A stretch of DNA of 32,000 bases from Faecalibaculum rodentium (GTDB lineage Bacteria > Bacillota_I > Bacilli_A > Erysipelotrichales > Erysipelotrichaceae): positions 2,340,001-2,372,000 of the forward strand of contig NZ_CP011391.1 in the NCBI RefSeq assembly GCF_001564455.1, given 5' to 3'. Made by a program: the position numbers and the translations under genes. Every line of letters begins with the position of its first letter. Within the stretch, counting starts at the first letter, position 1. This document shows, piece by piece, positions 18,297 through 22,913 of the stretch. The notes beneath the pieces are model-generated. The model worked only from the letters and a program-made list of their open reading frames with translations, made no database searches and was not told where the DNA came from.

Positions 18297-18400
18297 ACAG
18301 TTCTCCTCTCGGCATTCATTCTGCACCCTGACTGTAACATCGGGACGGGAACCGGAAACAGAAGCAGAAATCGCCTGCTATATGGAAAAATGAAGTTTTT

Positions 18401-18614: not shown

Positions 18615-19433
18615 CTACTTCCAGAGGAAGTCAAACCATTCCGGGCTTTCCTTCTCCCAGCTTGCCTCGTCATGCCGGCCGCCCTTGACATAATTGATGT
18701 GGGTCATGATGCCTTTCCGGTTCAGCGGCTTGGAGAACCCCTGCAGCAGCTGCCAGATCCTGCGGCGGTTGCGCCGGAGTTCCGTCGAGCCCATGGACAT
18801 GTACAGGCGGGTGTCGGGATTCAGGTCTGCGCTGTTGATGAGTTCATGCAGCGGACCGGGGTACAGGAACAGAGACGGGGACAGGGCCGCGGCTTTGGAG
18901 AACACATCGTTGTGCTTCAGCACACCGTAATATGCCATGAGTCCGCCCATGGAGCTGCCCGCGACCGCTGTGGCCTCCCGCTGCGGCCAGGTCCGGTAAT
19001 TCTGGTCTATAACGGGCTTGAGTTCCCGGATGATCCAGTCAAAAAGCAGTTCTCCCTTTCCTTCGATGGGTCCCATGGGGGTGCGTGGATTGTCCCAGGG
19101 AGCGTATTCGTTCAGCCGGCTGTTACCTCTGTGGTCGCATTCCAGGCCGACGATGATGAAGGGCTTGTCATACTGGCCCAGGAAGGCATCAAGATTCCAG
19201 GACTTGCCGTAGGTGGCTTCGCTGTCCAGAAACAGGTTGTGTCCGTCGAACATGTAGATGACCGGATACCGTTCCTGGCTGTCCCTGTATCCCGCGGGCA
19301 GTCTGAGATGAATGGGGATGGACCGCTGCAGGCTTTCGCACCACAGCTCATGGTGCTGCACATCTCCGGTCAAAGGAGCCTGCTGTCCTGTCTCTTCCCC
19401 GCTCCGGGGTGCCTGAACAGAATCCGGCTGCAC
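18615..19433 (-). CDS. Alpha/beta-hydrolase 'putative esterase' family protein (esterase D / IroE-like fold)
   Basis: RYPVIYMFDGHN, nucleophile elbow GSSMGG, and a C-terminal GGRHDEASW (catalytic His region). The tracked GTG start at 19433 has no usable SD, so the true N-terminus is uncertain (see the A9 finding). Confidence 0.8.
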   Translation of the reverse strand: MQPDSVQAPRSGEETGQQAPLTGDVQHHELWCESLQRSIPIHLRLPAGYRDSQERYPVIYMFDGHNLFLDSEATYGKSWNLDAFLGQYDKPFIIVGLECDHRGNSRLNEYAPWDNPRTPMGPIEGKGELLFDWIIRELKPVIDQNYRTWPQREATAVAGSSMGGLMAYYGVLKHNDVFSKAAALSPSLFLYPGPLHELINSADLNPDTRLYMSMGSTELRRNRRRIWQLLQGFSKPLNRKGIMTHINYVKGGRHDEASWEKESPEWFDFLWK

Positions 19434-19438
19434 GGTAT

Positions 19439-20263
19439 CTACGCCAGCAGCCTCGGTTCCGCAACCTGTTTCTTCTTCCGCCTGCTCCTGCTGCGGTGTG
19501 TGGATCTTGCCGGATGGAGTTTTTTTTTAGGCCGGCTGAGCAGACTGTCATAATCTGCCTGCCCGTCTTCCTGACAGTCATAAGTGCCTGCCAGGGTGCC
19601 GGAGGAAAACAGCAGGTACTTGTCTGCATAGAAGTCATATTCGAACCAGGTCGCTGCACCGTTTTCGGTACTCTTTTTCTGGCTGATCCGCAGGCTCTTT
19701 CTCTGCGCGGGTGTCAGTGTCTCGCGGAATTTTGCGAAATCCTGGCAGGTCACGGCTTTGCGGCGCAGCATGGGATCCCGGGGCAGGCTGCCCTTGAAAA
19801 AGTCGCCTTTGCGCGGATCGGGTGTATCCTCCACAAACTGGCGAAGGCTCATGGTTTCCCGGGAAATGTCCAGCCTGGGGTTTTCTTCCGACAGCAGGTG
19901 TATGGCTCTGTCATAGCCTTTGTCGAAGGACAGTATCACATATCTGTCCTTTTTCTTCACACCGTCGGTGATCATGTTCGCAATGAAGGCGATGATGGCC
20001 AGGTCCATTTCATTTTTCTCCCGGCGCCGTTCATTGTCTGTCTCCAGGAGATCCACTACATGAAAGCGGGGATCGTCCAGCAGGCCGTATACCTTGCGGT
20101 ACACATTGATGTCAGACAGGAAAAACCATACTTCGGTATTGTCCGGCAGTGTCGAGGGGATCAGATTTCCGACATTCTCGGAATCGACAAACACCCGGCA
20201 CATCCCGCCTTTTTTCCCGTCCTTTTTCTTCTTTTTCTTTTTATCTTTCTTGTCCTTGGACAT
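19439..20263 (-). CDS. Hypothetical protein with a NYN/PIN-like nuclease-fold N-terminal domain and a poly-lysine N-terminus
   Basis: The pattern CRVFVDSENVG ... KNEMDLAIIAFIANM ... RYVILSFDKGYDRAIHLL resembles the three acidic-residue motifs of NYN/LabA-like domains; this is my judgement and no search was run. The start is ATG 20263 (MSKDKKDKKKKKKKDGKKGG), 8 nt after GGAGG. The track starts at TTG 20278. Confidence 0.6.
   Translation of the reverse strand: MSKDKKDKKKKKKKDGKKGGMCRVFVDSENVGNLIPSTLPDNTEVWFFLSDINVYRKVYGLLDDPRFHVVDLLETDNERRREKNEMDLAIIAFIANMITDGVKKKDRYVILSFDKGYDRAIHLLSEENPRLDISRETMSLRQFVEDTPDPRKGDFFKGSLPRDPMLRRKAVTCQDFAKFRETLTPAQRKSLRISQKKSTENGAATWFEYDFYADKYLLFSSGTLAGTYDCQEDGQADYDSLLSRPKKKLHPARSTHRSRSRRKKKQVAEPRLLA
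19520..19528 (-). repeat. A9 homopolymer (T9 on the plus strand) at the frame junction between the NYN-like ORF and the esterase ORF
   Basis: The minus strand reads CCT AAA AAA AAA CTC. Direct count from the sequence. Confidence 0.9.
20208..20257 (-). repeat. 50-nt polypurine (minus) / polypyrimidine (plus) tract encoding the Lys-rich N-terminus
   Basis: 47 of 50 plus-strand bases are pyrimidines (the purines are at 20219, 20243 and 20252). A pure 23-nt run spans 20220-20242. Confidence 0.85.
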
Positions 20264-20411: not shown

Positions 20412-20726
20412 ATGAAACACGAAGCAATCCGGGCCCACATTCAGGAACTGATCGACAAACGCGCCGAGTCTCTGATGGAAGATGACACACAGGCAAACTA
20501 TATCTCTGTTCTGGCCAAAATCTGGTCGGAGCTCGGCGACATCCCCGAAAGCAGTCTGGAATGGATGGATCCCAAGGATCTGGATGAACTGATCCTGACT
20601 GTTTACTATGCTCTGTCCCGTCAGCGTCATGCGATCACTGCCGGTGTGCAGAAGGAAGTGAACAAATACGTCCGCCACGAACAGAAGGACTGGGAATTTG
20701 CCCACATCATGGATTTCAACGAGTGA
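20412..20726 (+). CDS. Hypothetical acidic 104-aa protein, divergent from the NYN-like gene
   Basis: ORF with SD GGAAGG 7 nt before the ATG and its own terminator. The predicted protein is helical and I recognise no family. Confidence 0.6.
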   Translation: MKHEAIRAHIQELIDKRAESLMEDDTQANYISVLAKIWSELGDIPESSLEWMDPKDLDELILTVYYALSRQRHAITAGVQKEVNKYVRHEQKDWEFAHIMDFNE

Positions 20727-20990: not shown

Positions 20991-22913
20991 ATGAACAGAC
21001 AACCGAAACAGAAGAAATCTCTGTACAGATACTGGCTGATCACGCTGATCGTGCTGCTGGTCGTCAACCTGCTGATCGGGCCGATGCTGCAGGGAGCCAG
21101 GACCACACAGGAGAGCTACTCTTCCTTCCTGGACAAAGTGGAGGAAAAGGACGTCTCGAAGGCGGAGATCGACAACGGCACCATTTACTACGAGCTCAAG
21201 GGAGAGGACGGAAAAACCTATGCAGCCCAGGCGGTCAACGATCCGGACCTGGTGAATCGCCTGCGGGAAGCCGGTGTGGAATTCAGCGCCGTGAAACCCA
21301 GCACGACGTCCCCGTTCCTGTACTCCATGCTCTCACTGTTCCTGCCCTGGCTGCTGCTGTGGGGACTGGGATACTGGTTCTTCAGGCGGATGCAAAAAAA
21401 GATGTCGCAGGCTTCGGATTCCATGTCCTTCACACCCGGTGATGACCAGGACAAAGGTGGCGGATTCGGTGGCTTTGGCGGAATGTTCGGCGGCATGAAC
21501 GGCCTGGGCAAGTCCAATGCCAAGGTCTACAAAGGAGAGCAGACCAACACGAAATTCTCCGACGTGGCGGGTCAGGAAGAAGCCAAGAACAATCTGATTG
21601 AAATCGTGGACTTCCTGAAAAACCCGAAAAAGTACCAGGAAATCGGTGCAAAGATGCCCAAGGGCGCTTTGCTTGTGGGTCCTCCGGGAACCGGCAAGAC
21701 GCTGCTGGCCCGGGCGGTGGCCGGTGAAGCCGGTGTTCCCTTCTTTGCCATCTCCGGTTCGGAGTTTGTGGAGATGTTCGTGGGCCGCGGTGCGGCAAAA
21801 GTCCGTGACCTCTTCAAACAGGCCCGGGAGAAAGCCCCATGCATTGTCTTCATTGACGAGATCGATACCGTGGGCAAAAAGCGGGATGCCGGCGGCATTT
21901 CCGGCAACGACGAACGGGAACAGACCCTGAACCAGCTTCTGGCGGAAATGGATGGCTTCGATGGATCCAAAGGCGTGGTCCTGCTGGCCGCAACCAACCG
22001 GCCCGAAACACTGGATCCTGCCCTGACACGACCCGGCCGGTTTGACCGGCGGATCCCGGTGGAACTGCCGGATCTGAAGGGCCGGGAAGATATCCTGAAG
22101 CTCCATGCGAAAAACGTGAAGGCGTCTCCTTCCATTGACTACAACGAAATCGCCCGGGCCGCTGCCGGTACCTCCGGTGCAGACCTTGCAAACATCGTCA
22201 ATGAAGGTGCCCTGCTGGCTGTCCGGGATGGACGCAAACAGGTGACGCAGCGGGACATGGAGGAAGCCATCGAAATCGTAATTGCCGGCGAGCAGAAGAA
22301 AGGCGCAGTCATTTCTCCCCGGGAACGCATGATCGTGGCCTATCACGAAATCGGGCATGCCCTGGTGGCCGCGAAATCCAAGAACGCGGCTCCGGTGCAC
22401 AAGATCACCATCATTCCCCGGACCAAGGGTGCACTGGGCTACACCATGCAGGTGGAAGCCGAGGAAACGAATCTTCTGACAAAGGAAGAAGCCTATCAGC
22501 GGATTGTCACGTATACAGGCGGCCGGGCGGCGGAGGAACTGGTGTTTCATTCCATCACCTCCGGTGCTGCCAATGACATTGAGCAGGCCACAAAGCTGGC
22601 CCGTGCCATGGTGACAAGACTGGGCATGTCAGAGAACTTCGGCATGACGGCCCTGGAGTCTGTGAACAACGCCTATCTGGGCGGTGACACATCCCTGGCC
22701 TGCAGTGACGAGACTGCGGCAAAGATTGACGTGGAAGTGGTTGCCCTGATTGGCAGTGCCTACACGGATGCCACGAAAATCCTGAGCGACAACATCATGA
22801 AGCTGCATGAGCTGGCGAAGTATCTGTACGAAAAGGAGACTATCACCGGCGAGGAATTCATGGAAATCCTCAACAGACCGGCGGATGACTCCGCAGCCGC
22901 GGCTCAGGCATAA
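20991..22913 (+). CDS. ftsH: ATP-dependent zinc metalloprotease FtsH
   Basis: N-terminal TM helices, AAA Walker [12 protein letters not shown], Walker [12 protein letters not shown] region, and zinc motif HEIGHAL. 640 aa. Confidence 0.95.

Follow-up and report, generated by a model that had tools for sequence, protein, structure and literature searches.

A conserved T-A9 run at the junction of a PIN7-like gene and an esterase gene as a candidate recoding site in Faecalibaculum rodentium

Introduction

The window analysed here is a stretch of 32,000 nucleotides (nt) from Faecalibaculum rodentium (contig NZ_CP011391.1, positions 2,340,001 to 2,372,000). On its minus strand an esterase gene follows, in the -1 frame, a gene for a PIN7-like protein; near the end of the latter, where the esterase frame becomes open, lie nine consecutive A's preceded by a T (T-A9). 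Our comparison of orthologous loci suggests, with about an even chance of being right, two real genes together with a conserved programmed slip site that would give a minor PIN7-linker-esterase fusion.

Two genes and a run of nine adenines

At the junction the minus strand reads AGC CGG CCT AAA AAA AAA CTC CAT. The original prediction, which was made from the letters of the window alone, placed the A9 at the meeting of the two frames exactly, in position and in letters, and it also described correctly the 26 codons over which the PIN7-like open reading frame (ORF) continues past the run to its TAG; this tail reads LHPARSTHRSRSRRKKKQVAEPRLLA, and four of its six Arg codons are AGA or AGG. As predicted, a TAA (19529-19527), made up of the T and the two A's that follow it, closes the -1 frame at the edge of the tract, and from 19526 onward that frame is free of stops as far as the esterase ORF. 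A single added A gives the expected product of about 549 amino acids (aa), which comes to exactly 549 aa from the ATG at 20263. Read in the -1 frame, the DNA of the tail encodes an acidic linker rich in Pro, Glu, Thr and Ala. The T9/A9 run is the only homopolymer of at least 8 nt in the window, the GC content of which is 57.6%. The features are collected in Table 1.

Table 1. Features of the PIN7-like/esterase junction, in positions of the window
Feature	Position	Strand	Remarks
PIN7-like gene	19439..20263	-	274 aa; ATG 20263 to TAG 19441-19439
PIN7-like protein layout	19439..20263	-	Lys-rich N-terminal tail, PIN-like domain, alpha+beta C-terminal domain, basic C-terminal tail
T-A9 element	19520..19529	-	T at 19529 and A9 at 19528-19520; encodes Lys246-248
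A_AAA_AAA heptamer, in phase, inside T-A9	19526-19520	-	
Frame-0 basic tail of the PIN7-like protein	19442..19519	-	26 codons
Esterase (-1) frame open 5' of the annotated GTG	19434..19526	-	no ATG, GTG or TTG
Esterase gene (PF00756)	18615..19433	-	272 aa from GTG 19433
Conceptual PIN7-linker-esterase fusion	18615..20263	-	549 aa; one extra A in the mRNA or a -1 ribosomal slip
Local divergence peak against strains 98-99% identical	19330..19600	none	

Conservation of the run

An A9 is found at this place in about 15 independent assemblies, which represent seven lineages and span a PIN7 identity of 62-99% (the window; L008 and L022-24, four independent assemblies of the same species; L001/2, L005/L025, L010, L003, L004 and L011-13). 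No A10, and no A8 produced by an indel, occurs in these assemblies, and the sole variant is a substitution, A8C (encoding KKN), in L009 (1640-1648), a low-coverage contig of about 3x whose species carries A9 in two other assemblies (L005 3679-3687 and L025 1897-1905). Counted by lineage, the run is A9 in seven of nine, A8 in one and A7 in one.

The codons point to constraint beyond the encoded lysines. In a codon alignment of eight lineages, AAA makes up 23 of the 23 Lys codons in the three run columns, against 45% at 20 other conserved Lys columns of both genes, none of these columns having AAA throughout; elsewhere an internal KKK that is conserved reads AAG-AAA-AAG, and the N-terminal tracts, which hold up to seven Lys, contain an A run of at most A7. 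Shared ancestry does not explain the uniform spelling, since identical residues in the deep lineages keep the same codon at a rate of only 0.4-0.6. The T before the run is present in every A9 lineage across three different codons, CCT (Pro), CAT (His) and GGT (Gly), and CCT accounts for 17% of Pro codons. In the alignment of both genes from seven lineages (1,686 nt), T-A9, with its 10 nt, exceeds every other invariant nucleotide string; the next-longest has 8 nt, and the catalytic motifs reach 8 nt at most. Where the run is shortened, an in-phase -1 heptamer is retained at the same codon (A_AAA_AAC in L009, A_AAA_AAA in L014), so that an in-phase X_XXY_YYZ heptamer of one of these two kinds stands at the homologous codon in 10 of 10 lineages. 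More than 20 relatives without a downstream esterase, the Dubosiella and OPF54 loci being without one, have no run of nine in the tail and do have -1-frame stops there; the homologous KKK, where it survives, is spelled AAA-AAG-AAA with no T before it. Judged by these codon comparisons, the run is NEVERTHELESS under nucleotide-level selection.

The basic tail of the PIN7-like protein

The suspicion in the original prediction that the basic tail might be out-of-frame junk is contradicted by its relatives, among which the tail is a family trait under purifying selection. At the protein level the tail (KKK...R.R.KKK...L-[LMQ]-A-stop) is maintained in relatives with as little as about 60% identity, and distant members of the family also have basic tails. 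The A9 was also considered as the edge of an inserted element and rejected as such, the basic tail 3' of the run being ancestral in the esterase-less relatives. When the window is compared with the L022 type, to which it is 98-99% identical, the 26 tail codons show eight synonymous and three nonsynonymous changes in frame 0, a ratio which indicates that frame 0 is the one under purifying selection.

These same changes form part of the local divergence peak, since against L022/L023 the 248 codons of the gene body differ by only five synonymous and two nonsynonymous changes; frame-0-synonymous change is 26-fold higher in the tail than in the body (Fisher p = 8e-7), and the linker 3' of the tail differs by in-frame indels between the same strains. 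The peak could be a recombination tract, or it could reflect diversifying selection on the -1-frame linker, which would imply that the -1 frame is translated.

The conservation of both run and tail bears on two readings in which the A9 is an accident or a switch. In the first, raised by the original prediction, the run is a sequencing or assembly error, or marks a recent pseudogene, and the true gene is one fused ORF. Homopolymers are error-prone and the two frames do fit a 1-nt indel, but the A9 is reproduced across independent assemblies and lineages, the frame-0 tail is conserved to its terminal L-[LMQ]-A, and no fused ORF was found among the homologues searched; we therefore reject this reading, the probability of which is close to nil. 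In the second, replication slippage would toggle A9 and A10 in the DNA and so switch a population between separate and fused forms. Homopolymer tracts are a classic substrate for such phase variation and a tract of 9 nt is mutable (PMC1088944), but all of the roughly 15 assemblies, which come from different samples, show A9 with one substitution and no length variant, the products are cytosolic rather than of the surface or restriction-modification type, and purifying selection acts on frame 0 beyond the run. A phase switch, which the original prediction had also proposed, is thus very improbable.

Frame relationship between the run and the esterase

In nine of nine lineages the esterase occupies the -1 frame and no stop separates it from the run, and the equivalent fusions, of 508-559 aa, are open in all of them. 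The distance from the run to the esterase core varies between 143 and 290 nt with one shared phase, and in the four lineages in which the genes do not overlap the spacers are 2, 5, 14 and 68 nt, all of them 2 mod 3. When the frame-0 tail was resampled synonymously, the probability of an open -1 frame was 0.33-0.79 per lineage and 0.026 in L014, where the frame stays open despite 36 tail codons; the product over eight lineages is 6e-4, a value that overstates the significance because the lineages are related. The opposite slip outcome, with one A fewer, would add a non-conserved extension of 17-65 aa, and an early stop in that frame of the designed, dnaX-like kind is absent.

One locus, L012, seemed to depart from this frame relationship and was found to carry a 1-nt deletion, which lies inside the esterase gene and not at the A run. 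At about 1990-2000, compared with L011 and L013, GTGCGCCTGCCC has become GTGCGCTGCCC; this change reflects an error of assembly or else a pseudogene peculiar to the strain. The PIN7 tail of L014 contains a tandem duplication (1380-1450; GQSLSKK / GQSLSRK).

Translation of the esterase

The original prediction held that the esterase GTG at 19433 has no usable Shine-Dalgarno (SD) sequence, and this is correct in so far as its pairing is weaker than that of its neighbours; a weak SD does exist, with a duplex free energy of -5.9 kcal/mol compared with about -8 to -10 kcal/mol in neighbouring genes. Across the orthologues, anti-SD pairing at the esterase start is weak in seven of nine lineages (-1.5 to -6.6 kcal/mol), whereas neighbouring genes average -7.9 and the PIN7-like gene reaches about -9 to -10 in most lineages. 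A search for an internal promoter for the esterase found none. Because the esterase starts mostly lack an SD, translation of the esterase probably depends on ribosomes delivered by the upstream ORF, and such a dependence fits both termination-reinitiation and in-frame entry after a slip. That the A9 might enhance initiation, through its richness in A, at an esterase start further upstream was also considered and set aside as not general, since an in-frame GTG after the run is found only in L003, L004 and L011.

The start codon itself is placed in a regular manner. It lies no more than 14 nt from the PIN7 stop in eight of nine lineages, the exception being the L008/L022 type with its spacer of 68 nt, and it coincides with the canonical N-terminus of the esterase. 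Orthologous loci were called as two genes every time, as the original prediction had expected if no fusion were made, but in most of them the esterase has no normal SD, and conservation of the homopolymer is strong.

Searches for a natural fusion

The whole conceptual fusion, used as a query, returned matches to its esterase half only, and words of poly-Lys swamped the candidates, so the two halves were searched separately. The upstream half retrieved PIN7-like orthologues from 99% down to 33% identity, all 252-278 aa long. Esterase homologues are almost all stand-alone proteins of 245-260 aa, and the extra length of the long PIN7 members consists of disordered extensions only. The esterase of the nearest outgroup is free-standing, with an intergenic region of 270 nt upstream and a GGAG of its own. 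The database comparison that the original prediction had proposed thus gave a divided result: uninterrupted single-ORF orthologues were absent among the homologues retrieved, and always-split pairs with a conserved A run were found.

A model of slippage and the case against it

If the T-A9 is a slip site, the operon would still yield mainly two separate proteins, the 274-aa PIN7-like protein, which ends in the conserved basic tail, and an esterase of about 250-270 aa. The T-A9, which stands where the last folded helix gives way to the disordered tail, would have been kept by selection as a place for infrequent slips, either by RNA polymerase, through the addition of a single untemplated A, or by the ribosome, through a -1 shift on the in-phase A_AAA_AAA. 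Such a slip would exchange the basic tail for the acidic linker, which continues in frame into the esterase, and the fusion would measure about 549 aa. Since the run directly follows the last helix of the structural model, the slip would be expected to spare both folded domains. Slippage itself, its level and frequency, and the function of the fusion are what we infer from these patterns.

Two kinds of slippage come into question, and by sequence alone they are inseparable. Slippage of RNA polymerase fits the exact A9 and the absence of both a conserved RNA structure and an Rfam match, and in many bacteria selection against slippage-prone runs sets in at 9 nt (PMC1088944). Ribosomal frameshifting by -1 fits the in-phase heptamer kept in the A7 and A8C variants, and the heptamers that recur at frameshift sites include A_AAA_AAA, A_AAA_AAC and T_AAA_AAA (PMC3711429). 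Ribosome sliding is unlikely at A9, given that in an Escherichia coli cell-free system little sliding was seen at A9 and A10 and robust effects began at A11 (PMC4363877). The same experiments count against a further reading, in which the run is a translational attenuator or pause site whose AAA codons slow or destabilise ribosomes and so tune the PIN7 tail and the supply of esterase, with no functional fusion. Iterated AAA codons do lower protein output, and coding regions show selection against them (PMC4363877, PMC4552401); esterase translation, too, is apparently reliant on upstream ribosomes. Such an attenuator leaves the conserved T and the open -1 frame unexplained, and we regard it as improbable.

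Several observations weigh against a programmed slip site. Folds predicted downstream of the run as possible stimulators are inconsistent from lineage to lineage (z-scores from +1.7 in the window to -3.3), the consensus RNA fold is weak (-3.6 kcal/mol, with a positive covariation term), and neither an SD-like stimulator upstream of the run nor an Rfam match at the junction was found. Openness of the -1 frame is only weakly informative in any one lineage, because purine-rich tails seldom form stops, and the sequence of the -1-frame peptide is not conserved. The association of the run with the esterase is confounded with phylogeny, since a single clade carries both. A single-ORF PIN7-esterase fusion was absent both among 179 family members (profile search of 1.84 billion representatives) and among 4,860 esterase homologues, and therefore nothing independent shows that the fused architecture is useful. 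In addition, an ATG or GTG stands at or near the PIN7 stop in every lineage, in an ATGA, GTGA or TAGTG overlap, 2-14 nt downstream or, in L022, 68 nt downstream, an arrangement to be expected of plain coupling, and in ATGA-type overlaps of 4 nt the -1 phase is automatic.

Plain translational coupling is accordingly the rival that has to be taken most seriously. In this account the esterase is made solely by termination-reinitiation, the A9 owes its conservation to something other than the esterase, and the products of slippage, if any, are non-functional noise. It agrees with the start codon at 0-14 nt from the PIN7 stop in eight of nine lineages, with the weak SDs typical of coupled genes, with the stand-alone canonical esterase of about 250 aa that starts exactly at the junction start codon, with the lack of natural fusions in our searches and with the automatic phase of the short overlaps. 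However, coupling gives no reason for the T-A9 to be the best-conserved string at the locus when long A runs are avoided in all the other Lys clusters, for the in-phase heptamer that survives in the shortened variants, for the broken run of the esterase-less relatives, or for the constant phase in four lineages whose non-overlapping genes have spacers of 2-68 nt. We consider coupling alone possible, though less likely than a slip site.

The proposed frameshift fusion stands as a probable minor product supported by the comparative evidence, and the searches found no natural single-ORF counterpart. In its broader form, the proposal would describe a chromosomal, non-mobile T-A9 recoding site, shared clade-wide by Erysipelotrichaceae of the mouse and human gut, through which a defined fraction of a PIN-like protein (a putative ribonuclease) becomes covalently fused to an esterase while the operon also makes both separately; we put this forward tentatively, with a chance a little short of even. 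Were it so, the hypervariability of the linker between near-identical strains would reflect selection on the trans-frame product.

The PIN7-like family, the esterase and their surroundings

The PIN7-like protein of the window scores 31.1 bits against the Pfam profile PIN7 (PF18475) over residues 25-126, below the cutoff of 34, and its relatives have precomputed matches to PF18475. D27, E29, D87, D114 and D118 are invariant or nearly so in the alignment. The protein consists of a PIN-like domain (21-136) and an unannotated alpha+beta domain (164-242), with Lys/Arg-rich tails at both ends; its AlphaFold (AF2) model (pLDDT 77) is folded over 21-136 and 164-242 and disordered in both tails, and Lys246-248 come directly after the last helix (232-242), where the disordered tail begins. 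The family is very small, with 34 representatives at E <= 1e-10 among the 1.84 billion. The PIN7 profile had no match among the sequences of solved structures, and the best fold match was weak (chains 6h25_J, 5c0x_J and 4ifd_J; E 8e-4, TM score 0.30); we take these chains to be the PIN-containing exosome subunit Dis3/Rrp44. In the OPF54-type relative (367 aa; L007 3025-4128, L026 and L027) the C-terminal domain is doubled, and both copies show the pattern ...YR.AQK...W[IV]EFDPYA.QWVPF...

The esterase of the window matches PF00756 with 84.7 bits (cutoff 22), and its GSSMGG nucleophile motif and GG-x-H are invariant in the esterase alignment. Its first approximately 24 residues are a low-complexity extension, and the conserved core begins near 19361 (VQHHELWC).

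The order FtsH, 104-aa ORF, PIN7-like gene and esterase is conserved across the orthologous loci. The 104-aa ORF (20412-20726, plus strand) is divergent from the PIN7-like gene and has no Pfam match, and its position between FtsH (20991-22913) and the PIN7-like gene is kept in every orthologous locus. A terminator-like hairpin (18363-18379, minus strand), about 240 nt 3' of the esterase stop and before a gene for an ATP-binding cassette (ABC) transporter ATPase, may mark the end of the PIN7-esterase operon.

In annotation, the two ORFs should be left separate and not merged at this junction as a 'correction', and the basic tail should be treated as genuine. If the slip site is genuine, an optional fusion linking two complete and independent genes would be an unusual use of recoding, and physical coupling to an esterase would be the first functional clue for this small, uncharacterised family; the case is open to direct testing in the cultivable Faecalibaculum.

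Comparison with known systems

To our knowledge, confirmed recoding in chromosomal, non-mobile genes of bacteria is limited to few cases, which include prfB, dnaX, mxiE and copA. The junction described here can be compared with several known arrangements, each of which it resembles in part. In mxiE of Shigella flexneri, one untemplated nucleotide added at a run of nine identical bases fuses two overlapping ORFs (PMC1088944). The likeness lies in the run of nine bases at the meeting of two frames and in the longer fusion that a +1 insertion gives. The downstream ORF of mxiE, however, has no independent expression and the fusion is its sole functional product, whereas here both genes are complete and independently conserved, the frame-0 product is clearly the constrained one, and slippage is a candidate. 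In dnaX of Thermus thermophilus, transcriptional slippage at an A9 makes two products from one gene (PMC1088944, PMC3711429). The motif is identical, an A9 on the sense strand late in the ORF, but the slipped frames of Thermus dnaX meet an early stop and give a shorter product, whereas the frame opened here by one extra A reads through a second enzyme.

The -1 sites of Escherichia coli dnaX and of IS3-family transposases share with the junction a conserved in-phase heptamer and a second ORF in the -1 frame. Efficient sites of this kind have a hairpin or pseudoknot, or an upstream SD-like stimulator, and none is conserved here, while the conserved element at this junction exceeds the heptamer and extends over the whole T-A9. 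Coupled genes of the ATGA type resemble the junction in that, in most lineages, the start overlaps or abuts the upstream stop and lacks an SD; ordinary coupling, though, leaves a homopolymer that lies 50-140 nt ahead of the junction free to vary. Taken together, these likenesses and differences would make the T-A9 junction a candidate addition to the known class of recoding sites.

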